In this document: one piece after another, positions 1 through 60,584 of the stretch
Layout: the number at the start of each line of letters is the position of its first letter
Position numbering within the stretch: position 1 is the first letter of the stretch
Assembly (NCBI GenBank): GCA_949841595.1
Contig: CATKZB010000001.1
Coordinates: forward strand, 170,418 to 234,417
Origin: an uncultured Christensenella sp.
GTDB lineage: Bacteria > Bacillota > Clostridia > Christensenellales > UBA1242
Direction: 5' to 3'
DNA: 64,000 bases
Position numbers and translations under genes: made by a program
The notes under the pieces: generated by a model
What the model was told of the DNA's origin: nothing
The model's database searches: none
What the model saw: the letters and a program-made list of their open reading frames with translations, nothing else

Positions 1-1244
1 TTTGTTTTAATGTCATCTTTCATTTCATATGCAAAACGAAGTTTAGATTTTTTATCAGCAAGCGTCAAAACTTCATTGGCCAATTCCAAACATCCATCTC
101 CACCCTTGGCATATGCTTCACAAACAACAACTGGAGCTTTTTCTTTTTTACACAATGAAACCAATTTGTTTAATTCTTCAATATCGTCATCTTCATGTTT
201 ATTTATAGTCACAACGAAAGGCAATTTAAACACTTGCTTCAGATTTTGAATGTGTTTCTTGACATTTTCAAAACCTTTAACAATATCCCCATCACCATGT
301 TCTTTAACAACTTTCAAAACAATTACCAAAACCACAGCATCAGGATTTTTGTCAATCACTCTGCATTTTATATCCAAAAATTTCTCAGCACCCAAATCGC
401 TTCCAAATCCTGCTTCAGTCACACAATAATCAGCATGAGAAAGAGCAAATTTCGTTGCTGTCACACTGTTGCACCCATGAGCAATGTTTGCAAAAGGTCC
501 AAGGTGAACCAAAGTTGCAGTGCCACCACAAGATTGAACAAGGTTTGGTTTAATCGCTTCCTTCAGCAATAGTGTCATAGCATTTTCTGCTTTTAAATCT
601 TTGGCATAAACTGGTTTACCATTTTTATCTAAAGCAACCAAAATATTACCCAAGTTTGTTTTTAAAGTGTCCAAATCTTCACTTAAGCACAAAATTGCCA
701 TAACTTCACTTGCAGCAGTTATATTAAATCCTGTTGTTATTGTTTCCTTTCCAATCTTGTAAGTTATCTCTCTCAAGCTTCTTTCATTGACATCCAAACA
801 TCTTTTAATAAAGATTTTTTGAGTGTCTATATTAAGTGCATTTCCCTGAAAAATATGATTGTCAACAATTGATGCCAACAAATTATTTGCTTGTGCAATT
901 GCATGAAAATCACCTGTAAAATGCAAATTGATGTCATCGCTTGGTTCAATCCTTGACTTACCACCACCTGTTGCACCACCTTTAATTCCAAAAACTGGTC
1001 CCATAGATGGTTCACGAAGTGCAAGCATAGTATGTTTCCCCAACTTGTTTAAAGCATCAGCAAGACCAATTGAAGTTGTGGTTTTGCCAATACCTGTTTT
1101 GTTGGAAGTCATTGCAGTCACAAGGATAAGCTTACCATTTTTGTTTCCTTTGGTATTTTTTACTTTTGCAATATAATCTCCGTAACACTCAACATCTTTT
1201 GAAGATATTTCACTTTTTTTTGCAATATCTTTAATCAACTTCAT
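1..1244 (-). CDS. fhs: Formate--tetrahydrofolate ligase, N-terminal ~414 codons (C-terminus lies left of the window)
   Basis: Own minus-strand translation from ATG at 1244..1242 (GAGGTG SD just upstream): MKLIKDIAKK...VTAMTSNKTGIGKTTTSIGLADAL...REPSMGPVFGIKGGATGGG...GPFANIAHGCNS...TEAGFGSDLGAEKF. Missing from the ORF track because no stop falls inside the window. Confidence 0.9.
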   Translation of the reverse strand, partial: MKLIKDIAKKSEISSKDVECYGDYIAKVKNTKGNKNGKLILVTAMTSNKTGIGKTTTSIGLADALNKLGKHTMLALREPSMGPVFGIKGGATGGGKSRIEPSDDINLHFTGDFHAIAQANNLLASIVDNHIFQGNALNIDTQKIFIKRCLDVNERSLREITYKIGKETITTGFNITAASEVMAILCLSEDLDTLKTNLGNILVALDKNGKPVYAKDLKAENAMTLLLKEAIKPNLVQSCGGTATLVHLGPFANIAHGCNSVTATKFALSHADYCVTEAGFGSDLGAEKFLDIKCRVIDKNPDAVVLVIVLKVVKEHGDGDIVKGFENVKKHIQNLKQVFKLPFVVTINKHEDDDIEELNKLVSLCKKEKAPVVVCEAYAKGGDGCLELANEVLTLADKKSKLRFAYEMKDDIKT

Positions 1245-1299
1245 GCTTCACCTCAACTGTTTAAAATTCGTAAAAGAATTATAACATACAAAAAAAATA

Positions 1300-1331
1300 A
1301 AACAAAGAAAAAACACTTAGTTAACTAAGCA
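1300..1331 (-). terminator. Rho-independent terminator after the Nudix gene
   Basis: Perfect 14-bp palindrome CTTAGTTAACTAAG (1316..1329), followed on the minus strand by a T-rich run (tgttttttctttg). Confidence 0.55.
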
Positions 1332-1365
1332 TTTTATAGTATCATAAGTTTTTAAAATTATAAAT

Positions 1366-1884
1366 TTAAATATATTCCTTCAAAGTTTCACAAACCCAGT
1401 CTTTATATTCTCTTGCATGATCACAAAAATCTTCAGAATAAAACATCTTCACAAACTCATCGTAAGAAAGATATTTCACTTCAGAGACTTCTTCTTTTTG
1501 CAAAGTCATTTCGTCTATTTTATAATTTGTCTTAAGCAAATAAATTTGTGCCAATTCTTTACCTTTCAAATTTACCCATTCTTTCAGAAATATAAAATCT
1601 TCAGGTTTTGCAACAATACCCAATTCTTCTTGTGTTTCTCTAACACAAGTTTCCAAAACACTTTCACCTGCAGAAACATGACCTGCAGATGGCATATCCC
1701 ATTTGTTTGGACTTTTCTTTTTTAAGGCAGATCTTTTTTGAATTAATAAATTCCCCCCCCCGTTAACAATCCATATCCAAACAGCTTTGTGAAAACAATT
1801 TGCCTCTTCACTGTGGCAATAACTTCTGCTCTTCGCTCCTAAAAATTTTCCATTAATGTCAAAAGTATCCAAAAATTCTTCCAT
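1366..1884 (-). CDS. Nudix hydrolase
   Basis: 172-aa ORF with a Nudix box GHVSAGESVLETCVRETQEELGI (GX5EX7REUXEEXGU). SD GGAG lies upstream of the ATG. Contains a G9 tract (1753..1761) encoding GGG. Confidence 0.85.
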   Translation of the reverse strand: MEEFLDTFDINGKFLGAKSRSYCHSEEANCFHKAVWIWIVNGGGNLLIQKRSALKKKSPNKWDMPSAGHVSAGESVLETCVRETQEELGIVAKPEDFIFLKEWVNLKGKELAQIYLLKTNYKIDEMTLQKEEVSEVKYLSYDEFVKMFYSEDFCDHAREYKDWVCETLKEYI

Positions 1885-1947
1885 ATTTAAACTCCAATTT
1901 GATTATATCACAAAAAAATCGCTTCTACAAATAAATTTATTTATTAG

Positions 1948-1976
1948 TTGCATTGTTTGATAATTTGTGATAATAT
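1948..1976 (+). promoter_or_regulatory. Sigma-A-type promoter candidate reading toward tRNA-Ser
   Basis: TTGCAT (1948..1953), 17-nt spacer, extended -10 TGaTAATAT (-10 hexamer 1971..1976). The predicted TSS near 1983 coincides with the start of a pairing-rich segment (CGCCAC...GTGGCG). Confidence 0.45.
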
Positions 1977-2014
1977 TAACTTACGCCACACCATTATTAA
2001 TAAGAATTATTGCT

Positions 2015-2050
2015 TTGATAAAAAAGGAGAAGCAATTGTTAAGTGAGGTT
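2015..2050. repeat. Direct repeat copy 1 (TGATAAAAAAGG-AGAAGCAATTGTTAAGTGAGGTT)
   Basis: Matches 2196..2269 apart from a ~35-nt hairpin-forming insertion in copy 2 and a few substitutions. Confidence 0.7.
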
Positions 2051-2195
2051 CTCACACATTATTAATATTTAAAGCAGTGGCGCGTTATAGATAACCTTGA
2101 TTATATCTCACCTTAGTGGAGATAGCTTGGGAGAAGAACCGACGTAGTAGCTGTTAGAAAAACTTTTGTTTTTTGTGTCAGCGTTAAACTGAGTC

Positions 2196-2269
2196 GGTGA
2201 TAAAAAAGGGCATCCCAAAAATAAAATTATTTTTGGGAAAAAGGAGAAAGCAATTGTTAAGCGAAGTTT
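2196..2269. repeat. Direct repeat copy 2, interrupted by a hairpin (CCCAAAAATAAAATTATTTTTGGG)
   Basis: GTGATAAAAAAGG[gcatcccaaaaataaaattatttttgggaaaaagg]AGAAAGCAATTGTTAAGCGAAGTTT. The insertion is bounded by AAAAAGG on both sides. Confidence 0.7.
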
Positions 2270-2315
2270 TTGACACTAGGAAAAAACAAGCCAATCATGA
2301 AGCTTTCGACAATAT

Positions 2316-2405
2316 GCAGAGATGTCCGAGTGGTTTAAGGTGCAGCCCTGGAAAGGCTGTGTGCAAGAAATTGCACCAAGAGTTCGAATCTCTTTCTCTG
2401 CGCCA
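2316..2405 (+). tRNA. tRNA-Ser (anticodon GGA), encoded CCA
   Basis: Acceptor GCAGAGA/TCTCTGC. Anticodon arm CAGCC-CTGGAAA-GGCTG. Long variable arm GTGCAA-GAAA-TTGCAC. T arm AAGAG-TTCGAATC-CTCTT. Discriminator G followed by CCA. Confidence 0.9.
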
Positions 2406-2431
2406 ATTTTTTTTAATTTAAGGAAAAATAA

Positions 2432-2869
2432 ATGGAAATAAAACACTCAAAAAACTTTAAGACTTACAAAAAAGTTGAATCAAAGCTCATTGAATCTAAC
2501 TATCAAAAATCAAAATCAGAAAATCTCAATCCCTCAATATATAAACGCAAAATAAAAATTGAAGGATTCTATCTTTACGATGATAAAAATGTTGTTGGTG
2601 GTGCTGGTTTTTATGTTGACCACTACAATTGGATTTATGTTGACACTATGTTCGTATCAGAAGACTATCGTGGAAAAGATTATGGTTCAAAGCTTATTCA
2701 ATCAGTTGTTGCATATGCAAAGGAAATAGGATGCACTGGAGTAAAATTAGACACTTGGGATTTCCAAGCCAAACCTTTTTATGAGAAAAATGGTTTCACT
2801 CAATATGGTTTACTTGAAGATTATCCAAAAGGACACACAACATATTTGTTGGCATATAAAACCAAATAA
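2432..2869 (+). CDS. GNAT family N-acetyltransferase
   Basis: 145 aa with ...VDTMFVSEDYRGKDYGSKLIQSVVAYAKEIGCTGVKLDTWDFQAKPFYEKNGF (acetyl-CoA-binding R/Q-x-x-G-x-G/A-like core). SD AGGAAA lies upstream. Confidence 0.75.
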   Translation: MEIKHSKNFKTYKKVESKLIESNYQKSKSENLNPSIYKRKIKIEGFYLYDDKNVVGGAGFYVDHYNWIYVDTMFVSEDYRGKDYGSKLIQSVVAYAKEIGCTGVKLDTWDFQAKPFYEKNGFTQYGLLEDYPKGHTTYLLAYKTK

Positions 2870-2895
2870 AAAAGACCTAAAACAAGGTCTTTTTT

Positions 2896-2898
<3 letters not shown>
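2868..2898. terminator. Bidirectional terminator between GNAT and mnmA
   Basis: AGACC-taaaacaa-GGTCT, flanked by an A-run and a T8 run. Confidence 0.6.
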
Positions 2899-4454
<1,556 letters not shown>

Positions 4455-4487
4455 TAATTTAATTTTAGAATAAACACACACTCAAAG

Positions 4488-5942
4488 TCAAGCAACTTCT
4501 TTCAATTTTTCTGATGCTTTGTTGAAATAAACATAAGAGGGTTTATCATCTGGGACATAATGCAAAACATATTCAAAAATCTCTTTGGCTTCCTGATATT
4601 TTTTCTCGTTGTAAGCACGCACCCCTTCTTCAAACTTGTTTTTTAGTTTTTTAAGCTTTTCACGTTTGTTTTTTTGATAATAATTCAAACTTTCAAAAAG
4701 AGAAATTTGAGATTCTCCGTCCAATGACAAAGCTCCTGTGTAACGATAATCAAAATCAAAATTTTGTGGAAGTTCGTTTAGAGCCTGTTTGGATATCAAC
4801 AATTTTGTGCCAATATAAAGATTGATTTCCACCATTTTTGACGCCAGATTGACAACATCTGAGATGATAGTTGGGCTTTTTCGTTCTTCATCGCCAACAA
4901 TTCCAAAAATAATTTCGCCTGTGTTTATGCTCAATCTTGCATCTATTGCAGGAAGATCTTTTTGGCTTTTGTTTTTAACATCTATTGCTCTCAAAATTGA
5001 ATGAGCACATTCAATTGCATCTTGAGGCTTAGAAAAAACTGCAAGCACACCATCTCCCATATATTTATCAATAAAGCCTCCAAATCTTCTTATAAGTGGT
5101 GCAACGACTTTAAGATAAGAGTTAATATAGTTGAAATTGGCTTCCAAACTTAAAGTACGAGAAATATTTGTGGCACTTTTTAAATCACAAAAAAGAGTTG
5201 TGGCATTCTTTTTAACTTGATTTCCAAGTTCCAATTCTGCAATATTACTTTTCCCTAAAAACTTGAAAAATTGTTTAGGAATAAACTTTTGAGCTTCCAA
5301 ATTTGTTTGTCTGATTTTGTTTTCTTTTTCTTTATAATTATAATTAATCTTGTTTAAAGAATTCTCAATTTCTTTAAATTGCTTGCCTCCACCGACTTTA
5401 AAATCATCAAATTTCATCCTTCCATCACCCAATTTTTCAGTAATTTTTTCCACTTTAGAAAGAGGACGACAAGAGAAAAGAATGATAACAAAAACCAAAA
5501 TCAAATAAATTAAAGTTGCAAGCCCTGCCCAGAGATAATTGTTGTAAGAATTTTCTTGTGTAACAATGTTGAGTGTTGCACGAATTGATTCAGCTGTGAC
5601 TCCTGTCATATTTTTAACAGCCGTAATATAAACCATGAATGCGCCATAGGCCAAAGTGAGTGGAGCTAAAGAAAAGAATATAACATTTGAAAGTCTTTGC
5701 GTTTTCAAAAATCTAAAAAACAATATACTGAAAAAAACATTGTTTAATATTTGAAATACAAGTGCCACCCAAGCAAGAGCAGTGAAACGCAGTTCAAAGC
5801 CATTCCCCGTCGGCACAATGGTTTGCAAAAGATATTTTGTCAAAAATATCCCTGGAATAAATGTGGCGATAGTAAGTCCTATCAAAATTTTTGTTGAAGT
5901 TCTCATACGAATATTTTGAGAAAAAATTTTCTTTGTATGCAA
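4488..5942 (-). CDS. Membrane-bound class III nucleotidyl (adenylate) cyclase with a TPR-like tail
   Basis: N-terminal polytopic membrane region. Catalytic core is TLFCDLKSATN...GGFIDKYMGDGVLAVF...RLSINTGEIIFGIVG...TIISDVVNLASKM. The K...D specificity pair suggests ATP as substrate. The annotated start is TTG; alternative ATG at 5906. Confidence 0.75.
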   Translation of the reverse strand: MHTKKIFSQNIRMRTSTKILIGLTIATFIPGIFLTKYLLQTIVPTGNGFELRFTALAWVALVFQILNNVFFSILFFRFLKTQRLSNVIFFSLAPLTLAYGAFMVYITAVKNMTGVTAESIRATLNIVTQENSYNNYLWAGLATLIYLILVFVIILFSCRPLSKVEKITEKLGDGRMKFDDFKVGGGKQFKEIENSLNKINYNYKEKENKIRQTNLEAQKFIPKQFFKFLGKSNIAELELGNQVKKNATTLFCDLKSATNISRTLSLEANFNYINSYLKVVAPLIRRFGGFIDKYMGDGVLAVFSKPQDAIECAHSILRAIDVKNKSQKDLPAIDARLSINTGEIIFGIVGDEERKSPTIISDVVNLASKMVEINLYIGTKLLISKQALNELPQNFDFDYRYTGALSLDGESQISLFESLNYYQKNKREKLKKLKNKFEEGVRAYNEKKYQEAKEIFEYVLHYVPDDKPSYVYFNKASEKLKEVA

Positions 5943-6049
5943 AATTTGTTTTTAATTGAAAGTCAAACTTTGTCTAATTTTGTAGAAAAATGTCTGTTAA
6001 AGCGTATATTCAAATCATTTTGAAACAAACTAAGCACAAGGAGAAAAAA

Positions 6050-6499
6050 ATGGATCAAAAAGAACAACTCACAAAGTATCTTAATGCAGTATATCAAAAC
6101 ACAAGGACTGCAGTTCAATCAATCGAGGATATAATCTTGAAAGTGCAAGATAACGAACTTATCAACGAGCTTTCAAAAGAGCAAGATGAATATTCTTGCC
6201 TTGCAAAAGAGTGCGAAAACTTTGCAAAAGCAGAAAAAATCGAAGATTTAAAAGACAACAACTGGATAGAAAAAACAAAGCTTTGGACAAGCATCAATCT
6301 CGGAACAATGATGGACAAAAGCACCAGAAATATTGCTGAAATGATGTTACTTGGGACTTTCATGGGCATTGTCACCTGCATTAAGGACAAAGATGACCAC
6401 AAAAATATCTCGCCAGAACTTGATGAAATTCTTGATAAATTATATAATTTTGAAAGAAATAATATTGACAGATTAATTCCTTTTTTAAAAGAAAACTAA
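6050..6499 (+). CDS. Hypothetical helical protein
   Basis: ORF 5990..6499 trimmed to the ATG at 6050, which is preceded by AAGGAG. No motif recognised. Confidence 0.5.
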   Translation: MDQKEQLTKYLNAVYQNTRTAVQSIEDIILKVQDNELINELSKEQDEYSCLAKECENFAKAEKIEDLKDNNWIEKTKLWTSINLGTMMDKSTRNIAEMMLLGTFMGIVTCIKDKDDHKNISPELDEILDKLYNFERNNIDRLIPFLKEN

Positions 6500-6523
6500 A
6501 AACGCTAAACTCCATATAAAATC

Positions 6524-6553
6524 AGAGAGAAAATTATTTCTCTCTATTTTTTT
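6524..6553 (+). terminator. Rho-independent terminator
   Basis: AGAGAGAAA-atta-TTTCTCTCT followed by T7. Confidence 0.7.
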
Positions 6554-7382
6554 ATTTGGCAAAAATTTCTTTAAGTTTTGTTTCATAAAAATATTTTAAA
6601 GACAAATTTATCACCATTTTTTCACTTAAATTTATTATTCTTCCATTTTCAAGTACAAGGCAAAAAATATGAGTTTTTGAAGATTGGATTTTCTCAATCA
6701 ATTGTTTCAAAGTTGTATCTCCATTCACACAACAAAAAACAGGCTTAGCAAAATTTTTTGTTTGTTTATTAAAAATGTTTATCTTTTCATAACGACTAAC
6801 AAATTTCAAATCCAACATGCCAGCAAACAAAAAGATTGCAAACAGAAAAAGACTTGGATTGAAATTAAAATAGGTGCAAACAACAAAAAGCATTAAAAAA
6901 CCAATTGCTAAAACCAAATTAAAAATTACAGTGATTTTCTTTGCCGTCTTTTCTTTAAAAAAGAAAGAGGATAAACAAACAAAAATTCTTCCCCCATCCA
7001 AAGGATAAGCTGGAAGCAAATTAAACAGTGCCAAAAGCAAACTTATTGAGACAAAACTTTCTGTGAAAAAATAGGTTGTGGGAAAAATCCACCAAATTGA
7101 AAAGATAAAAAATGCTGACAGCAAGTTTACACAAGGTCCAGCAAAAGCAATTTTCAATTCGTCCTTATAATCCAAATTTTGTCCATAATAACAAAGTTCT
7201 GCACCATAAGGCGAAAGAGAAAACTTGTTTAATTGATAGCCTAATCTTTTTGCAACTAAAAAATGACCAAGTTCGTGCAACAAAATAGCAAAAAAATAAT
7301 TCATTGCAACAATAGGGCCAAGCACAACAATAAGCCAAAACCAAACAATCAAACCTACAGGATGAATGGAAAATTTTTTCAT
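6552..7382 (-). CDS. M50 site-2 metalloprotease, SpoIVFB-like
   Basis: HELGH zinc motif (LLHELGHFLVAKRLGY) and NLLPAYPLDGGRI second motif in a polytopic membrane protein. Start trimmed to ATG 7382 (MKKFSIHP), which has an AGGGA SD. Confidence 0.75.
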   Translation of the reverse strand: MKKFSIHPVGLIVWFWLIVVLGPIVAMNYFFAILLHELGHFLVAKRLGYQLNKFSLSPYGAELCYYGQNLDYKDELKIAFAGPCVNLLSAFFIFSIWWIFPTTYFFTESFVSISLLLALFNLLPAYPLDGGRIFVCLSSFFFKEKTAKKITVIFNLVLAIGFLMLFVVCTYFNFNPSLFLFAIFLFAGMLDLKFVSRYEKINIFNKQTKNFAKPVFCCVNGDTTLKQLIEKIQSSKTHIFCLVLENGRIINLSEKMVINLSLKYFYETKLKEIFAK

Positions 7383-7576
7383 AAACAAGTCCCTATGCAA
7401 ACAACACAAATCACAATTGCAACCACACAGCAAACAAGTGTTCCAAGCAAAAATTTCAAAGAAAATTTATGCTTTAATTTGGTTTGATTATAATTTTTTC
7501 CATATGATTTTTGCTTGTCCATAAAATATTTATATGTGAAAAAAAGTTTGAATACAACAAAAAAAGCATAGTTTGA

Positions 7577-8248
7577 CTATGCTATTTCATCGTTTCCACT
7601 TATAGTTTCAATCCCTGCTTCATTTTTCAAAAAGTCAGGCAGTTCTTCTTCATCTGGAAGTTTAAATTCATTATAAAGACTGTCACTTTTTTCTTCTTCA
7701 CCAGTTTCAATAACTTTGATTCTTTCAAGAAGTCCTTCATAATCAGGAAGTTCTGCCAAATCTTGCAAATTAAATCTTTTCAAGAAATTGTCAGTTGTTC
7801 CAAAAAGAAGTGGCTTTCCAACTGCATCTTTACGCCCAACAACCTCAATAACATTTTGGTCAATCAAAATCTGAACAGCGTAATCAGCGTTGTTAACTCC
7901 CCTTATCTCTTCTATTTCAAGTTTTGTGATAGGTTGTTTATAGGCAATGATCGCCAATGTTTCAAGGGCTGCTCTTGTCAATGTTTTTTCTCTTATTGGA
8001 TTTAAGACTTCACTGATATAATCTGCATAAGCTGGATTTGAAGCAAGTTGCACTTTGTTTTTATATGTGATTAAGTGAATCCCATTATCACCTTGATATA
8101 TTTCTTGAAGTTCTTTCAAAGCTTTTTCGAGTTCTTTATCTGTGATATTAAGTTTTTCTGTGATAAAAGACTTTTCAATCCCCTCACCTGCCACAAACAG
8201 TATTGAAAAAACAATATCTTTTAAGTTTTTTTTGTTTTCAACATTCAT
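7577..8248 (-). CDS. scpB: Segregation and condensation protein B
   Basis: ...ILFVAGEGI...LAIIAYKQPITKLEIEEIRGV... winged-helix pattern of ScpB. Lies directly after scpA. Start trimmed to ATG 8248. Confidence 0.85.
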   Translation of the reverse strand: MNVENKKNLKDIVFSILFVAGEGIEKSFITEKLNITDKELEKALKELQEIYQGDNGIHLITYKNKVQLASNPAYADYISEVLNPIREKTLTRAALETLAIIAYKQPITKLEIEEIRGVNNADYAVQILIDQNVIEVVGRKDAVGKPLLFGTTDNFLKRFNLQDLAELPDYEGLLERIKVIETGEEEKSDSLYNEFKLPDEEELPDFLKNEAGIETISGNDEIA

Positions 8249-8249
8249 T

Positions 8250-9038
8250 TCACACCTCATTTGCAGTGATAACGATATTTCCAAAAGTTCCACTTTGAAT
8301 AACTTGAACAGTTTGTAATTTCAAAAGTTCCAAAAGTGCCAAAAATGTGTTTATAAGTTCACTTTTTGTCATTTGATCATCAAAAAGTTCTTCAAATTCA
8401 AAGCGTTTACGCTCCTTGGCAAAATTTCTGATGGAAATAATCTTCTCTGCCACAGTAAATCTGTCTTTAACAATTTTTTTAGGTTGTTCATCTTGAACAG
8501 CCTTTTTAAGTTCTTCACGAGTAAGAAGCTTGGCAAAAGCATCAAGCAGTTGATCCAAAACCATATCTTTCATCACGACTTTAACTTTTTCAGTTTCTTT
8601 TCCCGGCATTCTGTAAAGCTTATTGACATCTTCAATGTCTTTAAGCTTCTTGCTAGTTTCCTTGAAAAGCTCATATTCTTTAAGTCTCTTCAAAAGCAAA
8701 GCTTCATCTGACTCTTCATCAAAAGTTTCTTCTTGCTCAACTGGAAGAACGCTTTTTGATTTGATCTCAATCAATGTGGCTGCCACTGTGATAAACTCAC
8801 TCGCCTTGTCCATGTCCACGCTTTTAATGTCTTGCATATATTCAAGATATTGTTCAGTAATTTCTGCCAATTTCACTGTTGCAATGTCAAGTTTTGCATC
8901 CTTAATCAAATGCAACAACAAATCAAGAGGCCCCTCAAAATTGTCAAGTTTGAAACGATAGACATCAGAAGACAAAAGTATATCACTGCTTTCTTCTGTG
9001 ACAACAGTCTGATTGATGTTTTGTTCAACTTCTGTCAT
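8250..9038 (-). CDS. scpA: Segregation and condensation protein A
   Basis: FEGPLDLLLHLIKDAKLDIATVKLAEITEQYLEYM is the ScpA signature. Start trimmed to ATG 9038, which is preceded by AAGGAG. Confidence 0.88.
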   Translation of the reverse strand: MTEVEQNINQTVVTEESSDILLSSDVYRFKLDNFEGPLDLLLHLIKDAKLDIATVKLAEITEQYLEYMQDIKSVDMDKASEFITVAATLIEIKSKSVLPVEQEETFDEESDEALLLKRLKEYELFKETSKKLKDIEDVNKLYRMPGKETEKVKVVMKDMVLDQLLDAFAKLLTREELKKAVQDEQPKKIVKDRFTVAEKIISIRNFAKERKRFEFEELFDDQMTKSELINTFLALLELLKLQTVQVIQSGTFGNIVITANEV

Positions 9039-9161
9039 GGTTTCTCCTTTCTTGAAAGTCTTTCCTATTATACCAGATAAAGTATATAAAAACAAGCAAA
9101 ACACAACAAATAGAAACAAAAAAAGATGTCTCAGTTCAAACATCTTTTTCAATTACAATTC

Positions 9162-9686
9162 TTATTTTGTTTTTTCTTCAGCATTTTTTGTTTTTTGAGT
9201 TTTTATTTTTTGTCTGTTGTTGAAGACCACTCTCTTAGAACGCAAATAATCTTTTATTTCTTTAACAACTTGACTATTATATTTTTGATTGATTTGTTTT
9301 AAAGCTTCCTCATCACCACGAGTCTCTTTTTCTTCTAACAATTTTGATAAACAAAGAGTGTTAATCATAGCTTTTTCGATATTTTTATCAGCCAAAAATT
9401 TTAAGTCTTTAATCTTTTCCAATTTTTTAACTATATCTGGTTGAGAAACCAAATATACTAAAAAACCTTCCATAGTTGCATTCTTAAAATTTGCTGGAAA
9501 TCTGTGGATGATTTTCACTTCATCCGAAAACAACAATGTTTCATTTTTGTCAGTCTTTGCAAGATAATAACCTTCAAATTTTGGGTCATTTTCAACTTTA
9601 ATAATGCTATCATTAACAAATGATCTTTTTCTTTCGTCATCAAAAATTTTATAGATTTTCTTATCTGTGTAATATTCTTTTATCAT
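9162..9686 (-). CDS. Hypothetical protein
   Basis: 174-aa ORF with a GAGGTG SD and an upstream TTATAAT -10 element. No motif recognised. Confidence 0.5.
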   Translation of the reverse strand: MIKEYYTDKKIYKIFDDERKRSFVNDSIIKVENDPKFEGYYLAKTDKNETLLFSDEVKIIHRFPANFKNATMEGFLVYLVSQPDIVKKLEKIKDLKFLADKNIEKAMINTLCLSKLLEEKETRGDEEALKQINQKYNSQVVKEIKDYLRSKRVVFNNRQKIKTQKTKNAEEKTK

Positions 9687-9755
9687 TTTTCACCTCAATA
9701 CGCCACATTATAACATATGAAAAACAAAATATCAATAGTTCTTATAAATTTTTTT

Positions 9756-9790
9756 GAAAAAAAGAGTGAATTTTTCACTCTTTTTGTTTT
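9756..9790. terminator. Bidirectional terminator
   Basis: AGAGTGAA-ttt-TTCACTCT, flanked by an A-run and a T-run. Confidence 0.6.
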
Positions 9791-9799
9791 CTTTTTTTA

Positions 9800-10960
9800 T
9801 TACCATTTTTCAAGTACTTTGTGTGTTGTTTCAAACCAAGAAAGATGTTTAATTTCTTCTTTCACAACAAGAGAAATTTTCTTTACCACATTGCCATTTT
9901 TTGTTACAGTAACCGTACCCACAACATCTCCTTTGTGAGTTGGTGCTTTAACAGAATTTTGAAGTTCTATTGAAGTTTCATATCCTGATTTGTCACCTTT
10001 TTTCACAACAGCTGCAAAACTTTCTTGTGCAAAAATGTCCACATTTTCTGTTTTACCTTTAACAACTGGAATTTGCGAAATTGCAACATCTGAATCTACA
10101 AGTTTTTCACTTTCAAAATTTGAAAAACCATAATTGAAAAGAGTGGCACTTTCATTAAATCTTGTTTTACTATTTTCTGCTCCCACAATAACTGAAATAA
10201 GTCTCATATCTCCACGTTTTGCAGAAGCTCCCAAACAACAACCTGCTTCATTGGTTGAACCAGTTTTTCCACCATCACAACCTTGATAATAACGAATAAG
10301 TCTGTTTGTGTTTACAAGTTCTGTTTCTCTTCCAGATGGATGAACAAGTTTGTCCATCCAAATTGTGCTGTAGTTGTGATATATTTCATGTTTTAAGATT
10401 TCTTTAAGAAGGATTGCAGTGTCCTTTGCTGAAGAATATTGTTCTGGTGCTGGAAGCCCTGTGCAGTTTGAATAATGAGTGTCAACCATGCCAAGTTCTT
10501 TGGCACGTTTGTTCATTCTGTTTGTGAAAGCTTTTTCGTTTCCATTGAAATATTCAGCTAGTGCCACACTCGCGTCATTTGCAGATGCCATGATAACTGA
10601 TTTCAACAAATCTTCAAAAGAATATTCAACATATGGATCTATAAAAACTTGAGAACCACCCATGCTGGAAGCATTTTCTGTGGTTGTTATCATTGTGTCA
10701 AGAGTGACATTCCCTGCTTCCAACTCTTCCAAAGAAAGCAAAATTGTCATCATCTTAACCATGCTGGCAACTGGCAAATGCTTTGTTTCATCTTTGGAAA
10801 ACAAAACTTCTCCACTGTCATATTCCATAAGAATAGCACTTTTGCTGGTGAGATCAACATCATTTGTTGCACTGACAGGAACAGCTACATTTCCAACGCC
10901 AATAACAAGCAGAGCAAATGCCAACAAACATAAAATCGAACTTTTAAAAATCTTGCTCAT
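9800..10960 (-). CDS. D-alanyl-D-alanine carboxypeptidase (S11, DacB/DacF-like)
   Basis: Signal peptide. SxxK motif in LPVASMVKMMT, and KTG motif in DGGKTGST. Start trimmed to ATG 10960, which has a GGAG SD. Confidence 0.85.
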   Translation of the reverse strand: MSKIFKSSILCLLAFALLVIGVGNVAVPVSATNDVDLTSKSAILMEYDSGEVLFSKDETKHLPVASMVKMMTILLSLEELEAGNVTLDTMITTTENASSMGGSQVFIDPYVEYSFEDLLKSVIMASANDASVALAEYFNGNEKAFTNRMNKRAKELGMVDTHYSNCTGLPAPEQYSSAKDTAILLKEILKHEIYHNYSTIWMDKLVHPSGRETELVNTNRLIRYYQGCDGGKTGSTNEAGCCLGASAKRGDMRLISVIVGAENSKTRFNESATLFNYGFSNFESEKLVDSDVAISQIPVVKGKTENVDIFAQESFAAVVKKGDKSGYETSIELQNSVKAPTHKGDVVGTVTVTKNGNVVKKISLVVKEEIKHLSWFETTHKVLEKW

Positions 10961-11020
10961 AAAAAAACTCCTTTTCGCTTTAGTTTTTTGCAAAAAAGAG
11001 TGTTTTATACCTATTGAAAA

Positions 11021-11644
11021 TCAAATAACCAAAATCACTTTTCCATTCAAAATAAAAAGCAAAAGAGTTTCAACCAAATTGATAAGCAGCAAAATCAAAA
11101 TCCCTATAAGCACAAACAAAAATCTGTTGCATTCACAATGTCCAAATTTATGACAATTGTTGTTTATTCTTGAGAAAATAAAGTAAAACATGATCAGCAC
11201 GAACAATGTCAAAAGTTGACAAGGCAAAACAATGATTACGGCAGTAAATATTCCACCTATTCCATAAAAAATGAAAATCAAAGCAAAGTTTAGTCCAAAC
11301 AAATAGCCCCTATACACAAACAATATTTGTGCCAATGGAAGCAAATAAACCGAAAACGAAAGTCCTGTCAAAATCACAATATTGACGCACAGTGAAAGGC
11401 TACGAGAAAAGAAAGCTGATGACGAAGCTACAAAACCAGAATAGAAATCTCCTAAAGAAATTTCCGTCAATTGGCAAAGCTCAAAAGCTCTGTTACTTTT
11501 TATTGCAATAAAAACTCCTGTGCACATTGCAATCAAAACAAATGTCAATGTCAAAATAATTTTTAATTTGTTTGCTTTGATTGCATTTACACAAGAAAAT
11601 CTTAAACCGTTAAAAAACGAATGTGTTTTATAGGATTTTATCAT
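11021..11644 (-). CDS. Polytopic membrane protein, SpoIIM-like (tentative)
   Basis: 207 aa with about 5 TM helices. Segments FVYRGYLFGLNFALIF and VLPCQLLTLFVLIM line up by eye with B. subtilis SpoIIM (LFLKGVVVGFTVGFL, VMPQNLILIPAYII). Confidence 0.4.
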   Translation of the reverse strand: MIKSYKTHSFFNGLRFSCVNAIKANKLKIILTLTFVLIAMCTGVFIAIKSNRAFELCQLTEISLGDFYSGFVASSSAFFSRSLSLCVNIVILTGLSFSVYLLPLAQILFVYRGYLFGLNFALIFIFYGIGGIFTAVIIVLPCQLLTLFVLIMFYFIFSRINNNCHKFGHCECNRFLFVLIGILILLLINLVETLLLFILNGKVILVI

Positions 11645-11668
11645 AAGATATATTTATTAAACAAGCCA

Positions 11669-11696
11669 TAAAAAAAGAACACAAGCCTCGTGTTCT
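11669..11696 (-). terminator. Terminator after miaA
   Basis: GAACAC-aagcctc-GTGTTC, followed on the minus strand by T7. Confidence 0.65.
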
Positions 11697-12604
11697 TATT
11701 TCAAAAATTCTTCAACCAATTTTTTGAGCTGTTTATAAGCAAAATCTTTATCTTCCACATCCACAAAATTCACATTTTCCATGCCACGCAAAAACGTAAG
11801 TTGTCTCTTGGCGTAATTTCTGCTGTGTTGCTTTAGCAATTCAACCATTTTGTGAATATCATATTCACCATTTAGGTAAGAAAGAACTTCCTTATAACCA
11901 ATTGCTTTCATACATTGATTTTCAAAAGTAAGTCCCTTTTTTTTAAGATTTTCAACTTCTTTAATCAAACCCTTTTCAAGCATGATGTCAACTCTTTTAT
12001 TGATGTCTTTATAGAGCATTTCTCTATCCCTATTCAGTGCAATAATCAGAGGCTCAATGTCCACTTCGTTTTTTTGTTTTTCTCCCGAAGAAAGTGCTAT
12101 TTCGACTGCTCTTACAAGTCTAACAGTGTTGAATTTGTCAGTTTTTTCTGCCATTTTGGGGTCTTTTGTTTTCAACATTTCAAAAAGGTAATCATTTCCC
12201 TTTTCTTTTGCCAAATTTTCCAACTCATTTCTTAAATTGTCGTCTTTTGAAATTCCACCAAAATTATAACCCTGTGTAAGCGCCTTAACATAGAGCCCTG
12301 TTCCACCCACAACGATTGGCGTTTTACCTTTAGCATAAATTTCATCTATTTTTTGCTTTGTATATTCAACAAAGTCATAAACAGAAAATTCTTCTTCTGG
12401 CTCTAATATGTCAATCGCATGATGAACGACTCCCTGCATCTCATCTTTTGTCACTTTTGCAGAACCAATGTCAAGTCCCTTATAAATTTGAACTGAATCT
12501 GAAGATATAATCTCTCCACCTATTTCTTTTGCCAATTTAACACTGAAATAAGTTTTCCCAACGGCAGTAGGTCCTAAGATGAAAATAACTTTTTTCTTCA
12601 TCAC
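11696..12604 (-). CDS. miaA: tRNA dimethylallyltransferase
   Basis: P-loop VIFILGPTAVGKT, then ...SSDSVQIYKGLDIGSAK... and ...HHAIDI... Confidence 0.92.
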   Translation of the reverse strand: MMKKKVIFILGPTAVGKTYFSVKLAKEIGGEIISSDSVQIYKGLDIGSAKVTKDEMQGVVHHAIDILEPEEEFSVYDFVEYTKQKIDEIYAKGKTPIVVGGTGLYVKALTQGYNFGGISKDDNLRNELENLAKEKGNDYLFEMLKTKDPKMAEKTDKFNTVRLVRAVEIALSSGEKQKNEVDIEPLIIALNRDREMLYKDINKRVDIMLEKGLIKEVENLKKKGLTFENQCMKAIGYKEVLSYLNGEYDIHKMVELLKQHSRNYAKRQLTFLRGMENVNFVDVEDKDFAYKQLKKLVEEFLK

Positions 12605-14571
12605 AAAGTCCTTTTAAACATTTTTTCAAGTTCTTTTCTTGAAATTCTGACAACAATAGGTCTTCCATGTGGACAAAGTGCCACTCCACCTTTCATCTCA
12701 TCAATAAGATAATAGATCTCTTCTTTTGTGACATCATCGCCAGCACGTATTGCATGTTTGCAAGCTGTTTGACAAAGTTTTTCGTTGATAAGACCACTTG
12801 CTGACTTTTCGTTGTAATTATCACCAGCTAATATCTCTTCAACAAATTTGTCCAGTTTTATACCAGAAAGAACAAATGGAATGCTCTTGATTTCAAAAAC
12901 ATCGTTTCTGTTTGTGATTTCAAAACCTAATTTTTCCAGATTTGAAAGTTTTGTTTCAAACAAATCTCTATCTTTTGCAATCAAGCTAAATGAATATGGC
13001 ACAAGCAAATCTTGCTTTGCAACATTGTTGTTTTCAACTTGTTTTTTAAGTTTGTCATAAAGTTGTCTTTCGTGCATAGCATGTTGATCAATAACATAAA
13101 CACTGTCCTCAAATTCGGTGATGATGTATGTCTTGAAAACGACTCCCAAAATTTTTATCTCTTCAGCTTTGATTTTTAAAAACTTTTCTTCAACAAACTT
13201 TGGCGTAACAAATTCTTGTTTTTCTTCCAAATCTTTTTTTACACTTATTTCAACTTCATGCAAAAGACTTTCACCAGAATGATCAAAAAAGATGTTTCCA
13301 CCAGATTTATTTTTGTTTCTTGCATCTGACTTCACACTTGAAAATTCTGGCATATTGATGATGTCTATGCCTTTTTGTTGGTATTCGCTTGGAGACGCAA
13401 TTTTTTCTTTGACAGTATCGTCATCAACAGAAACTTTGTAACTTGCTCCTTCTGTCTCAGACATTTTATCAAATTTTGATTTTTCAAACGCATCAAAACT
13501 TGTTTGTTGTGGATGTGCGTCGTTTTTTATATCAAATTTGCTCCAATCATCTTCATTTTTGCTTGTAAATTCAAAATTTGCAATAAGATTTGTTGAAATC
13601 AAAGCTCTTTCAACTGCTCTTCTAATTATTCCAAAAACTTTTGAAGAATTTTCAAACTTAACCTCTTTTTTGTTTGGATGAACATTGACATCCACTCTGT
13701 CAAAAGGCACTTCAAGCTTAATCACATAAATTGGAAATCTTCCTTTCATCAAGAGTGGCTCGTATGCACCTTGAACACAAGCCGAAACCATATAGTTTTC
13801 AACATATCTTCCATTAACAAACAAAGTTTGATATGTTCTATTTGGACGTGAAAACTTTGGAGAAACAACATAACCACAAACTTTCAAACCATCTTCTTCA
13901 TAATTCAGTTCAAGCAAATTATCGAAAACTTCTCTGCCATAAACCAAATAAATCACTTCGTTAAGATTTCCCGAAGCGTGGTTATAGATTGTTTTTCCAT
14001 CCACAACATATTCAAAATCCACTTCAGGATGAGCCATCATAAACTTTTCAATCAAATGAGTTATTTCACTCTCTTCTGATTTTGGTTTTTTGAGAAATTT
14101 TGCTCTTGCAGGAGTGTTGTAAAACAAATTTTGAACAACAAGTATTGTTCCATCAAGCCTTGCAACTTCTTTGACTTTTGATATTTCTCCACCATTAGCT
14201 TCAATTTGATATCCTGTGTCACTTTCTTTTGTTTTTGTGCTCAAACTAACCATTGAAACAGATGCAATGCTGGCAAGTGCCTCTCCACGAAATCCCAATG
14301 TGGCAATTTCATCCAAGTCATCAATATCTGAAATTTTGCTTGTTGCATGTGGCATAAAAGCAAGAGGCAGATCTTCTTTTGAAATTCCAACACCGTTGTC
14401 AGAAACAGAAATCTTTTTGATTCCACCTTCCACTATTTCCACTTTAATCTTTGATGCTTTTGCATCAAGACTGTTTTCCACAAGTTCTTTAACAACAGAC
14501 GCAGGCTTTTCAACCACCTCTCCTGCTGCAATACGATTATAAATTCTTGGTGACAAGACATTGATTGCCAT
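12601..14571 (-). CDS. mutL: DNA mismatch repair protein MutL
   Basis: N-terminal GHKL ATPase IAAGEVVEKPASVVKELVENSLDA...DNGVGI. C-terminal ...QHAMHERQLY...CPHGRP motif. Confidence 0.95.
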   Translation of the reverse strand: MAINVLSPRIYNRIAAGEVVEKPASVVKELVENSLDAKASKIKVEIVEGGIKKISVSDNGVGISKEDLPLAFMPHATSKISDIDDLDEIATLGFRGEALASIASVSMVSLSTKTKESDTGYQIEANGGEISKVKEVARLDGTILVVQNLFYNTPARAKFLKKPKSEESEITHLIEKFMMAHPEVDFEYVVDGKTIYNHASGNLNEVIYLVYGREVFDNLLELNYEEDGLKVCGYVVSPKFSRPNRTYQTLFVNGRYVENYMVSACVQGAYEPLLMKGRFPIYVIKLEVPFDRVDVNVHPNKKEVKFENSSKVFGIIRRAVERALISTNLIANFEFTSKNEDDWSKFDIKNDAHPQQTSFDAFEKSKFDKMSETEGASYKVSVDDDTVKEKIASPSEYQQKGIDIINMPEFSSVKSDARNKNKSGGNIFFDHSGESLLHEVEISVKKDLEEKQEFVTPKFVEEKFLKIKAEEIKILGVVFKTYIITEFEDSVYVIDQHAMHERQLYDKLKKQVENNNVAKQDLLVPYSFSLIAKDRDLFETKLSNLEKLGFEITNRNDVFEIKSIPFVLSGIKLDKFVEEILAGDNYNEKSASGLINEKLCQTACKHAIRAGDDVTKEEIYYLIDEMKGGVALCPHGRPIVVRISRKELEKMFKRTL

Positions 14572-14585
14572 TGTTTTTCTCCTTA

Positions 14586-17207
14586 TTATTTTTCTTCTTT
14601 AGCTCTTGAAATCAAATCATTCAAAACTTCAAAACTTTCAATTGGAGACATTCTGTTTATGTCCATGTCTCGCAAAATTGAAAGCAGTTGTTGCCCAAGT
14701 TTGTTGTTTTTTTCTTGTTTAGAGCGTTCTTCATCTTCTCCAAAGATGTTCATATCAAGTTTTTGATTGACCTTTTCAAGATTTAAACTTATCTCTTTTG
14801 CTCTTTCAATAACTTTTTCAGGAACACCAGCAAGTTGAGCAACTTCCACTCCAAAACTTCTGTTTGCATGCCCTCTGATGATTTTTCTTAAAAACACGAT
14901 AGTGTCATTTATTTCTTTGACTGTGACTTTATAGTTTTTCACGCCTTTAATGACACCTTCAAGTTCTGAAAGTTCATGATAATGTGTTGCAAACAATGTT
15001 TTGCAGTTAAGATTTTTTGAGATATATTCCACAACAGCCCAAGCAATTGAAAGACCGTCAAAAGTAGAAGTTCCTCTTCCAATTTCATCAAGCACAACTA
15101 AACTTCTGTCTGTTGCATTTGCCAAAATGTTTGCGACTTCACTCATTTCCACCATGAAAGTGCTTTGTCCAAACGCCAAGTCATCACTTGCCCCCACACG
15201 GGTGAAAATTCTGTCAGTTAAAGCAATTTCTGCACTCTTTGCAGGCACAAAACTGCCAATATGTGCAAGAAAAGTGATGATTGCAACTTGACGCATATAT
15301 GTGCTTTTTCCTGCCATGTTAGGGCCAGTGATTATCATCATTTTATTTTCATCGCAATCCAAAATCGTGTCATTTGTGATGAAACTGCCATCTTTAACAA
15401 ATTTTTCAACAACAGGATGTCTCCCTTCTTTAATGTCGATCTTTTTGACATTTTTGTTTATAACTGGTTTGCAAAAATTGTATTTTACGGCAACTTGTGC
15501 AAACGAAAGCAGTGCATCAATTTCCGAAATCTTTTTTGCACAGTCAGAAAACGCTCCCAGATAGTTTGAAAGGTATTCAATAAGCATTTTATACAGTTTT
15601 TCTTCCAATTTAAGTGCATTTTCAACAGAATTGAAAATTTTATCTTCAATTTTTTGCAAATCTTCCGTTGTGTATCTTTCAGAATTTGCAATTGTCTGTT
15701 TCCTTATGTAACGAAGTGGAACAAGATCTGTTTGTCCTTTGCTGACCTCGATGTAATATCCAAACACACTGTTTGACTGAATTCTCAAATTTTTTATGCC
15801 AGTCTTTTCTCTTTCAAGTTCTTCCAATTTCTGGCATTCTTTCTTGCCTATTTCTTTTGCATGTCTAAGTTCATCCAACTCTTGGTTGAATCCATCACGA
15901 ATATAACCACCGTCTTTCAAAAGTGCAGGTGGATTATCCACAATGGCAGTTTGCAAAAGTTTGACAATTTCACCAAAATCAACAATTTCATCTCTGTTTG
16001 AAACCAACTTCTTTGTCTTAACATTTGACAAAATACTTTTGATGTTTGGAAGTTCTGCCAGCGAATCTTTAAGCAAAATCAAATCTTTCGGCATGATGTT
16101 GCCATATGCAATTTTACCACTTATTCTTTCAATATCTTTGATTTTTGTCAAACTTTCTGAAAGTTTATCACGCATAATCAAATTTTTTGAAAGTTCTTCC
16201 ACACTGTCAAGCCTCTCGTTAATCTCTGTTGAACTTTGAAGTGGTTGATCAAACATTGACCTAAATTTTCTTGCACCCATGCTTGTTTTGGTGTTGTCCA
16301 TAAGCCACAAAAGTGAACCATATTTTTTTCGTTCTCTGATTGATTCCACAAGTTCGAGATTACGTCTTGTGTTCATGTCGATTATCATAAACTGGTTGTT
16401 TTTCACTTTAGTGATTTTATAGATATTTTTAAGTGATCTTTTTTGAGTCTCTTGCAAATATTCCAAAAGTCCACCAATTGCAGGAATGTCTTGTTTGTTG
16501 GTTTTAAGTTCAAACACATTCAAAGCATTTTCGCCAAATTGGTTTGTTATGTTTGCAACTGCCTTTTCATTGCCAAAAGCATATTCCATATATTCTTCAA
16601 ACTTTGGATAAACTCCAAAACGAAGCATTGGAAGAGAATTGTAAAATTCTTTTGCCTTGGCATTTCCAATAACTTCAGAAGGCATCACACGATTCAATAA
16701 ATCTGCAAAATTACTTTCAAGTCCACCATCAATGTGACAAAGATTGAATTCACCAGTTGTAATGTCACAATAAACAACAGAAAGCTTTTCGTTGTCCAAA
16801 AACATGGACATAATAAAGTTGTTTTTTCTTTCTTCAAGCATAGAGTCATCCACAACTGTTCCTGCTGTAACAACTCTCACAACATCTCGTTCAACAACTT
16901 TTACACCCTTCTTTGGTTCTGTCAATTGCTCACAAACGGCAACTTTATAGCCAAGCTCAACCAATTTTGCTATGTAATTTTCTGCAGCATGATAAGGCAC
17001 TCCACACATTGGAGCTTTTTCATCAAGCCCACAACTCTTTCCAGTTAAAGTCAAATCCAAAACATTTGAAATTTCAATTGCATCATCATAAAAAAGTTCA
17101 TAAAAGTCGCCCAAACGATAAAACAAAACGCAATCTTTATATTGCTCTTTTGTCTGTAAATAATGTTTCATCATTGCTGATGGTTCTTTCACATTTGTTT
17201 TGACCAT
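14586..17207 (-). CDS. mutS: DNA mismatch repair protein MutS
   Basis: 873 aa with MMKHYLQTKEQY...FYRLGDFYELF, Walker A TGPNMAGKST, and ...LDEIGRGTSTFDG...THYHEL. Confidence 0.96.
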   Translation of the reverse strand: MVKTNVKEPSAMMKHYLQTKEQYKDCVLFYRLGDFYELFYDDAIEISNVLDLTLTGKSCGLDEKAPMCGVPYHAAENYIAKLVELGYKVAVCEQLTEPKKGVKVVERDVVRVVTAGTVVDDSMLEERKNNFIMSMFLDNEKLSVVYCDITTGEFNLCHIDGGLESNFADLLNRVMPSEVIGNAKAKEFYNSLPMLRFGVYPKFEEYMEYAFGNEKAVANITNQFGENALNVFELKTNKQDIPAIGGLLEYLQETQKRSLKNIYKITKVKNNQFMIIDMNTRRNLELVESIRERKKYGSLLWLMDNTKTSMGARKFRSMFDQPLQSSTEINERLDSVEELSKNLIMRDKLSESLTKIKDIERISGKIAYGNIMPKDLILLKDSLAELPNIKSILSNVKTKKLVSNRDEIVDFGEIVKLLQTAIVDNPPALLKDGGYIRDGFNQELDELRHAKEIGKKECQKLEELEREKTGIKNLRIQSNSVFGYYIEVSKGQTDLVPLRYIRKQTIANSERYTTEDLQKIEDKIFNSVENALKLEEKLYKMLIEYLSNYLGAFSDCAKKISEIDALLSFAQVAVKYNFCKPVINKNVKKIDIKEGRHPVVEKFVKDGSFITNDTILDCDENKMMIITGPNMAGKSTYMRQVAIITFLAHIGSFVPAKSAEIALTDRIFTRVGASDDLAFGQSTFMVEMSEVANILANATDRSLVVLDEIGRGTSTFDGLSIAWAVVEYISKNLNCKTLFATHYHELSELEGVIKGVKNYKVTVKEINDTIVFLRKIIRGHANRSFGVEVAQLAGVPEKVIERAKEISLNLEKVNQKLDMNIFGEDEERSKQEKNNKLGQQLLSILRDMDINRMSPIESFEVLNDLISRAKEEK

Positions 17208-54156: not shown

Positions 54157-54187
54157 TTGACAAACTCCCCCCCCCGCAATTTATACT
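54157..54187 (+). promoter_or_regulatory. Promoter candidate with a C9 tract in the -35/-10 spacer
   Basis: TTGACA (54157..54162), then a 19-nt spacer aactCCCCCCCCCgcaatt, then TATACT (54182..54187). An AAGGAGG SD and ATG 54219 follow. Confidence 0.5.
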
Positions 54188-54218
54188 TTATTTAAGAATA
54201 AAAAAAGGAGGCTTACAA

Positions 54219-54443
54219 ATGAAAACAGCAGCAAAAGTGTTTATCATATTGAGTATGGTTTTCGGTTTTTGGGTTATTCTTCCATTGATTTTCGGTGGAA
54301 TAGCATTGGGAAAACTTAAAACTGCAACAACAAAATCAGAACTCACCACTTCAGCAGTGCTTGTATTGTTGTTCTGCAGCTTACTTGGTGGAATCTTCAT
54401 GCTTTGCATTTCAGAAGAAGAACTTGCAGCAAACAAGCAATAA
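54219..54443 (+). CDS. Small 2-TM membrane protein (74 aa)
   Basis: Strong AAGGAGG SD. Two hydrophobic helices are separated by KLKTATTKSE. Confidence 0.6.
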   Translation: MKTAAKVFIILSMVFGFWVILPLIFGGIALGKLKTATTKSELTTSAVLVLLFCSLLGGIFMLCISEEELAANKQ

Positions 54444-60578: not shown

Positions 60579-60584
60579 GTTTTT

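Follow-up and report, generated by a model that had tools for sequence, protein, structure and literature searches.

A length-variable poly-G tract in an uncultured Christensenella lineage as a candidate slipped-strand switch of a Nudix hydrolase gene

What is a run of nine guanines doing in the coding sequence of an enzyme in an AT-rich genome? The question is raised by a stretch of 64,000 nucleotides (the window) from an uncultured Christensenella sp. (Bacillota; Clostridia; Christensenellales; UBA1242), positions 170,418 to 234,417 of contig CATKZB010000001.1 in GenBank assembly GCA_949841595.1, which carries a G9 homopolymer in the 5' half of an open reading frame (ORF) for a predicted Nudix hydrolase. 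An initial annotation, made from the letters of the sequence, proposed that this tract is an ON/OFF switch operated by slipped-strand mispairing. Here we examine that proposal by computational means. The tract is non-random, varies in length among closely related genomes, determines the reading frame and is kept across species, and a switch of the contingency-locus type would account for these properties.

The tract occupies positions 1753–1761, where C9 on the plus strand gives G9 on the minus strand, the coding strand of the Nudix ORF (1366–1884, minus strand, 172 amino acids), which is the sole long ORF at this site. The run makes up codons 42–44 (AAC GGG GGG GGG AAT, encoding N41-G42-G43-G44-N45) within the sequence WIVNGGGNLLIQ. 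A ribosome-binding site, GGAG at 1892–1895 on the same strand, can be read 7 nucleotides 5' of the ATG (1882–1884), and the Nudix box (residues 68–90, GHVSAGESVLETCVRETQEELGI, 1615–1683) lies 3' of the tract, so that the coordinates and the translation agree with the initial annotation in placing the run upstream of the catalytic motif. The annotation also held that a slip of a single nucleotide in either direction would abolish the enzyme, and changing the length of the tract in silico bears this out: G9 gives the 172 amino acid protein, G8 a product of 46 amino acids that ends at a stop two codons past the tract and G10 one of 73 amino acids, neither of which reaches the Nudix box. The full-length protein is predicted at tract lengths of 6, 9 and 12, with products of 46–73 amino acids at 7, 8, 10 and 11.

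How unusual is such a run? On the plus strand of the window, C has a frequency of 0.192 and G of 0.138 (33% GC), whereas the initial annotation had put each at 0.16–0.17, a figure that is right for the mean of the two but not for either one. The number it derived, about 0.01 runs of nine in 64 kb, nevertheless lies close to the 0.011–0.019 that we compute for runs of at least 9, and two such runs are present. For G/C runs of at least 8, the observed number is three and the expected number 0.10 if bases are drawn independently, 0.075 under a first-order and 0.06 under a second-order Markov model (Poisson P ~1e-4). All three, at 1753, 36346–36353 (C8) and 54167–54175 (C9), are C on the plus strand, as previously pointed out, and the longest G run on that strand is 4. 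The distribution of C runs on the plus strand is itself informative: 241 of three, 52 of four and 13 of five, none of six or seven, then one of eight and two of nine. GGG makes up 9.4% of glycine codons in the window, where no further Gly-Gly-Gly site is written with three GGG codons; among proline codons, CCC makes up 3%. A tandem-repeat search of the window returned no di-, tetra- or penta-nucleotide repeats of the contingency type, leaving homopolymeric G/C as the sole signal of this kind. Rfam searches of the whole window and of positions 1860–2440 found tRNA-Ser only, thus no RNA element accounts for the tract. A role in G-quadruplex formation was considered and rejected, since an intramolecular quadruplex cannot form from a single G9 run. 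As expected of a contingency locus, then, the run exceeds the length that composition allows and is placed where a change in its length would alter expression.

A contingency locus should also differ in length between near-identical genomes, and more often than the background of small insertions and deletions. Conspecific assemblies were found through exact-protein look-ups of neighbouring genes and are 98.2–100% identical to the window at the nucleotide level, those compared at the Nudix tract being 99.5–100% identical. The tract is G9 in the window, in GCA_948504575.1 (loci L082 and L107) and in SRR32965978 (L106), and G8 in GCA_948647925.1 (L081 and L108) and SRR34312787 (L109), where the gene caller reports only a 109 amino acid C-terminal fragment of the Nudix protein. 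The length polymorphism that the initial annotation suggested looking for is therefore present among assemblies. In GCA_948647925.1 there is not one mismatch to the window over 6,869 + 7,008 + 7,503 bp, and the single gap is the Nudix tract. When the three G/C tracts of the window (Nudix, serine hydrolase and promoter; see below) are taken together, 10 of 17 comparisons show a difference in length, as against none of 35 for control A/T runs of 8. That A/T runs of this length stay constant while G/C tracts vary means that general miscalling of homopolymers is no explanation. Among A/T runs of 7, only two variable sites are seen, each confined to one sub-lineage. An intergenic T7 at window position 33780 is T8 in L085, L086, L088, L090, L091 and L094, which form a sub-lineage ~98.5% identical to the window; this change tracks the lineage defined by single-nucleotide polymorphisms (SNPs), whereas the G/C tracts do not. 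Several short-read contigs begin at or near a tract, L083 with C9 at positions 2–10, L101 with G10 at positions 1–10 and L084 ~10 nucleotides past the tract, which suggests mixed lengths or a loss of coverage and proves neither.

Is the tract peculiar to this species? Across 120 Nudix homologues, the corresponding site is mostly an AT-rich turn of the form N-[DS]-[KN]-G-E, and about 12 proteins have G-G-G instead. At least five further species have a pure G8–G10 tract at these hairpin-turn codons, in proteins with 53–85% amino acid identity to that of the window; the initial annotation had proposed such a comparison of orthologues. The tract is G9 and in frame in L098 (85% identity), L001 (65%) and L099–L102 (53%), and out of frame in L006 (68%; G9, where G10 or G7 would be needed), L008 (67%; G8) and L009 (64%; G8, where G9 would be needed). 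In L006, L008 and L009, the shifted frame stays free of stops through the remainder of the gene, and the same is true of the conspecific G8 alleles L081 and L109. To judge from this intact coding sequence, the out-of-frame alleles appear to be switched off rather than decaying. The species represented by L003 carries GGGGGAGAG at this site, likely derived by interruption from a tract such as that of its relative L099 and thereby phase-locked ON. Given the low usage of GGG codons, neither chance nor drift by mutation would by itself easily explain how a pure tract has been retained at 53% identity. In a neighbour-joining tree, the orthologues with G-G-G are spread over about six groups; the tree, of a protein of 170 amino acids, is weak, and repeated gain and repeated loss of the tract are indistinguishable on it. 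When metagenomes were scanned for Nudix relatives, three loci came back, all without the tract and from genomes of 25–29% GC, and no additional conspecific was among them.

The 172 amino acid protein itself is readily placed in the Nudix superfamily. It matches the Pfam NUDIX family (PF00293) at 66.6 bits against a cut-off of 21.1 (E=3e-18) and its Nudix box is canonical (GX5EX7REUXEEXGU), reading G68-x5-E74-x7-R82-E83-x2-E86-E87-x-G89-I90, with most of these residues invariant in 30 orthologues. The nearest solved structures by sequence are E. coli YfcD (2fkb; E=1e-9, or 7e-14 with a profile) and the type-1 isopentenyl diphosphate (IPP) isomerases (IDI). An AlphaFold (AF2) model has a mean confidence (predicted local distance difference test, pLDDT) of 96.3 and in Foldseek matches 2fkb with a template-modelling (TM) score of 0.78–0.83, other matches being IDI (TM ~0.7–0.8) and DR0079. 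With YfcD and the type-1 isomerases it shares the fold and an N-terminal extension with conserved histidine residues. It differs in falling far below the cut-offs of the corresponding NCBIfam equivalogs (56.5 bits against 152 for NF011922, 56.8 against 127 for NF002995 and 48.5 against 105.8 for TIGR02150) and in having an invariant alanine, Ala67, where the IDI residue preceding G-H69 aligns, a residue that we take to be the catalytic Cys67 of the isomerase. The alanine, the canonical Nudix box and the low scores together point to a hydrolase rather than an isomerase, and the protein is probably a YfcD/IDI-like Nudix hydrolase that is related to these equivalogs but belongs to none of them. 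In the AF2 model, the three GGG codons form a hairpin turn (residues 41–45) between strands 31–40 and 46–51. Judged from the model, this glycine turn should be a permissive site at which gain or loss of a glycine is tolerated.

These observations can be combined into a simple scheme. Slipped-strand mispairing during DNA replication would add or remove one G in the G9 tract, runs of G/C of 7–8 or longer being known to slip. At G9, translation would continue through to the 172 amino acid hydrolase, and at G8 or G10 it would end in a truncated product without the catalytic box. A second slip would restore expression, giving a reversible, heritable ON/OFF switch, which is possible because the remainder of the gene stays intact in OFF alleles. 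The three glycines of the hairpin turn would offer the tract a permissive host site. We put the probability that replication slippage at a hypermutable poly-G run reversibly toggles the Nudix reading frame at about 0.8; we infer the slippage process itself, the ability of a lineage to switch back and any benefit under selection, and an adaptive role for the switching is conjecture.

Several points weigh against this reading. Many orthologues of similar identity lack the tract, which is thus not essential to the gene family. Variation within a single population, like true reversibility, is inferred by comparing assemblies with one another, and the lone difference between the window and GCA_948647925.1 could be the consensus call of a mixed or noisy read pile-up rather than a difference between strains. 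The target is an enzyme of the cytoplasmic house-cleaning type, with no obvious reason to be phase-variable. Finally, the window encodes MutS (14586–17207, minus strand, 873 amino acids with all five domains) and, adjoining it, MutL (12601–14571, minus strand, 656 amino acids), both intact and both normally acting to lower slippage rates. To judge by these genes, poly-G variability arises in an organism that appears to be proficient in mismatch repair.

Does the Nudix tract stand alone? The second long run of the window is a G8 homopolymer (36346–36353, minus strand, C8 on the plus strand), which lies in frame at codons 26–28 (CGG GGG GGA region, R-G-G) of an ORF encoding a 180 amino acid protein of the Pfam Ser_hydrolase family (PF06821; 35887–36429, minus strand) and would act as a second switch, ON at G8. 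Besides the window, ten conspecific loci cover this site: four are G8 (L085, L087, L088 and L094) and six are G9 (L086, L089, L090, L091, L092 and L093). G9 is found in contigs 99.8–99.9% identical to the window and G8 in contigs only 98.4–98.6% identical; the state of the tract is thus not ordered by SNP distance, an indication that it has mutated repeatedly. In a more common species (L110 and L111) the tract is G10. Many orthologues, at 57–72% identity, have an R-G-G or G-G-G loop at this position, and four serine hydrolase proteins in the databases (P0121, P0155, P0156 and P0166) begin with an out-of-frame N-terminus and rejoin the family exactly at the tract.

The third run, C9 at 54167–54175 on the plus strand, is intergenic and lies in the spacer of a predicted promoter, where it would be a switch of another type. 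A perfect -35 hexamer, TTGACA (54157–54162), can be read by eye and is followed, at a distance of 19 nucleotides with the tract at C9, by a -10 hexamer, TATACT (54182–54187). Our promoter scan allows spacers of 16–18 nucleotides only, and the promoter at 54157–54187 is therefore unlisted by it. Downstream are a ribosome-binding site (AGGAGG, 54206–54211) and an ORF of 74 amino acids with two predicted membrane helices (54219–54443), all on the plus strand; the encoded protein has no match in Pfam or NCBIfam and belongs to a family of small proteins that is widespread in Clostridia. L095 shares C9 with the window, L096 has C10 and L097 has C6, the last without any other mismatch to the window, giving spacers of 19, 20 and 16 nucleotides; by calculation, C7 would give 17. 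From the spacing of the two boxes, tract length is expected to tune or abolish transcription. A promoter of similar construction is found in L001 (reverse strand, 6740–6790, tract at 6760–6767), with the sequence TTGACA-AAT-C8-GCCATGT-TATAAT, ahead of an ORF of 100 amino acids and a leucine-rich-repeat protein of 589 amino acids. The two share a layout of TTGACA, 3–4 nucleotides, a run of C8–C9 and a good -10 box, in which changes in a C run just past the -35 box would alter the -35/-10 spacing. Upstream of a homologue of the 74 amino acid protein from an organism of 45% GC (P0242), no such run is present and the promoter reads TTGACA-N18-TAGTAT.

The initial annotation also called for a wider census of G/C runs, and this was carried out on the window and on loci of related species. 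In 203 kb pooled from eight related species there are 43 runs of 5, one of 6, one of 7, four of 8, twelve of 9, three of 10 and one of 11, against 8.4 of length 6 and 0.36 of at least 8 expected from a geometric fit. Runs of 6–7 are thus depleted about six-fold and runs of 8–10 are in about 50-fold excess, a bimodal distribution with its mode at 9. In 120 kb of relatives of lower GC content that lack the Nudix tract, no G/C run exceeds 5. Estimates of density draw on the 64 kb window and on loci selected because they hold a tract-bearing gene; ~13 tracts remain in the 203 kb once the Nudix tracts, by which loci were ascertained, and one discounted run have been removed. The latter, G11-TTT-G7 at 15626–15646 of L009, is included in the pooled counts above; it lies ~20 nucleotides from the end of its contig and may be an artefact of two-colour Illumina poly-G read tails rather than a real tract.

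Ten distinct genes with intragenic tracts were repaired in silico. In every case the tract is G on the sense strand, encodes GG or GGG and lies at a relative position of 0.12–0.50 in the ORF; over the census as a whole, a tract is either in the first half of its ORF or in the spacer of a promoter. The genes encode the Nudix protein, an HD phosphohydrolase, a YdjC-family protein, an AP_endonuc_2-type TIM barrel, an IMPase-like protein and the serine hydrolase, together with a TetR regulator, a GT4 glycosyltransferase and a 223 amino acid protein without an assigned family. Genes of the window that look essential (gyrA, ftsK, mreB, minD, mnmA, one for a penicillin-binding protein, mutS and mutL) have no tract. 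Since all three tracts of the window have their G on what is presumed to be the leading strand, a rule based on the replication strand was entertained; it is rejected by L098, where two tracts within 1 kb are on opposite strands and each has its G on the sense strand of its own gene. What holds throughout for intragenic tracts is thus G on the sense strand.

The HD, YdjC and TIM-barrel tracts lie at identical offsets in L003 and L099, and their lengths vary among L099, L100 and L101, splitting or restoring the annotated genes. In L099 (GCA_949516635.1, positions 1–12000) a cluster of 10 kb contains three or four genes for Nudix proteins, two for HD proteins and others for a dCMP deaminase, a YdjC protein, a HAD hydrolase, Peptidase_S51 proteins and GNATs, and has four poly-G tracts. 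The TIM-barrel (G10), HD (G9) and YdjC (G10) genes are out of frame there; L100 and L101 both have HD in frame, at G8, and L101 also has YdjC in frame, at G9. The YdjC gene of L100 is annotated as intact and has no G run of 6 or more at the tract site. On this reading, the Nudix tract is one of a lineage-wide set of poly-G/C switches, some intragenic, with sense-strand G in the 5' part of genes mostly for cytoplasmic hydrolases, and some of the promoter type.

Other explanations of these data have to be weighed. That poly-G lengths have simply been miscalled, through homopolymer error, two-colour chemistry or polishing, is scarcely credible. Contigs do break at or beside tracts, the L009 pair of runs near a contig end is suspect and the window differs from GCA_948647925.1 at the Nudix tract only, all of which an artefact would produce; but the A/T8 runs are identical in all 35 comparisons, the promoter tract differs by three nucleotides (C6 against C9) and by one (+1) between contigs otherwise 99.6–100% identical, the tracts are internal to long contigs and, in assemblies made independently for other species and in other projects, tracts are met again at the same positions, in frame. 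It is very unlikely, too, that output is set at the RNA level, by transcriptional slippage or ribosomal frameshifting, with DNA length of minor importance. RNA polymerase can slip on long homopolymers, every intragenic tract has its G on the sense strand and genomes with out-of-frame alleles retain an intact downstream frame, as recoding would have it. Against this, the frequent variation in DNA length suffices to explain the pattern, the sense-strand bias can also be explained by tolerance of glycine loops but not of proline runs (CCC being rare), promoter tracts could not work through recoding of RNA, and neither a stimulatory structure nor a slippery heptamer was seen.

A mutational hotspot of no adaptive value, in which glycine loops drift to poly-G through a mutational bias of the lineage and OFF alleles are losses of function in dispensable genes, deserves more attention, unlikely though we consider it. 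The targets are cytoplasmic enzymes that look non-essential, many orthologues manage without a tract, the roughly six separate clades of GGG-loop orthologues fit a repeated mutational origin, and three of the five tract-bearing species representatives among the matches listed are OFF (L006, L008 and L009, against L001 and the window). Drift of this sort is harder to reconcile with a pure tract that occupies the same codons even where identity has fallen to 53%, despite a GGG usage of 9%, with the HD, YdjC and TIM-barrel tracts that the species of L003 and L099 likewise have in common, with the deficit of runs of 6–7 beside the excess of 8–10, with the restriction of tracts to 5' halves of ORFs and promoter spacers and with OFF alleles that are free of secondary damage.

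What would such a set of tracts mean? Phase variation through homopolymeric tracts is textbook material for a few pathogens and has hardly been explored in the uncultured Clostridia that are dominant in the gut. We tentatively suggest, as a possibility that falls somewhat short of even odds, that this clade of gut Clostridia has, in spite of intact MutS and MutL, a dense poly-G phasome, shared across species and genera and made up mostly of cytoplasmic house-cleaning enzymes and hydrolases of nucleotides or sugar phosphates rather than of surface antigens. If so, ~1 tract per 10–20 kb would amount to the order of 100 tracts per genome, and the outcome would be stochastic bet-hedging over states of metabolism or of the nucleotide pool, perhaps connected with pressure from phages or toxins; to our knowledge, such a logic over intracellular states has not been described for phase variation in gut commensals. 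Were the set adaptive, gut commensals would be stochastically diversifying their repertoire of intracellular enzymes. There is also a practical side. Pipelines for metagenome-assembled genomes call switch genes truncated or split, as with the 109 amino acid Nudix fragment, a 174 amino acid hydrolase and the split HD and YdjC genes; annotation that is aware of tracts is needed, and 'pseudogenes' of these lineages may be OFF states.

Some further features of the window may be recorded here. Between the Nudix gene and tRNA-Ser (2316–2405) is an imperfect direct repeat of ~30 nucleotides (AAAAAGGAGAAGCAATTGTTAAGYGARGTT), with copies at 2021–2050 and 2239–2269 and no match to the repeat in an Rfam search of 1860–2440. 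Each copy resembles a ribosome-binding site followed by a TTG start reading M-L-S-E-V, and the first copy would yield an ORF of 9 codons. Two very large ORFs, one of 1281 amino acids (41835–45680, plus strand) and the other of 1491 amino acids (56130–60605, minus strand), have no Pfam match at E<=1e-5. An imperfect ATC/GAT triplet array of ~26 copies at 45742–45825 lies inside an ORF on the minus strand (45736–46254), where it would encode an acidic, Asp-rich stretch; having a period of 3, it is not a frame-shifting repeat.

How, finally, does this locus compare with known systems? In open-access literature, within a limited corpus, we found no poly-G phase variation in this clade and no phase-variable Nudix gene; the lineage, the target genes and the conservation of tracts across species appear to be unreported, and the mechanism itself is classic. 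The initial annotation drew a parallel with Campylobacter, and in tract type and modal length the parallel is close. The poly-G/C loci of C. jejuni, like those of H. pylori, Neisseria and Haemophilus, are G/C tracts of 8–11 in genomes of low GC content, with a bimodal distribution and a mode of 9; in both, tracts are placed in the 5' part of ORFs or in promoters, changes of a single nucleotide toggle the frame, and ON and OFF states occur among near-identical genomes. The parallel fails for mismatch repair: C. jejuni lacks repair of the MutS1/MutL type, whereas the host of the window, an uncultured lineage of mouse-gut Clostridia, has MutS and MutL intact, a repair-proficient background that is more like that of Neisseria or Haemophilus. 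The targets differ as well, being mainly cytoplasmic hydrolases and a TetR regulator here and surface-structure genes in C. jejuni, and tracts are found here at orthologous codons in species up to ~47% apart in protein sequence. Local density, ~1 tract per 14–21 kb in loci selected for tracts, looks higher than the ~1 per 55 kb of C. jejuni. The promoter-type tracts have their own precedents in the porA and opc genes of Neisseria (poly-G/C) and the vlp genes of Mycoplasma hyorhinis (poly-A). They differ from these in the genes downstream, here a 74 amino acid membrane protein and, in L001, the 100 amino acid ORF followed by the leucine-rich-repeat protein, and they resemble them in having the run between the -35 and -10 boxes, with a spacing of 16–20 nucleotides.

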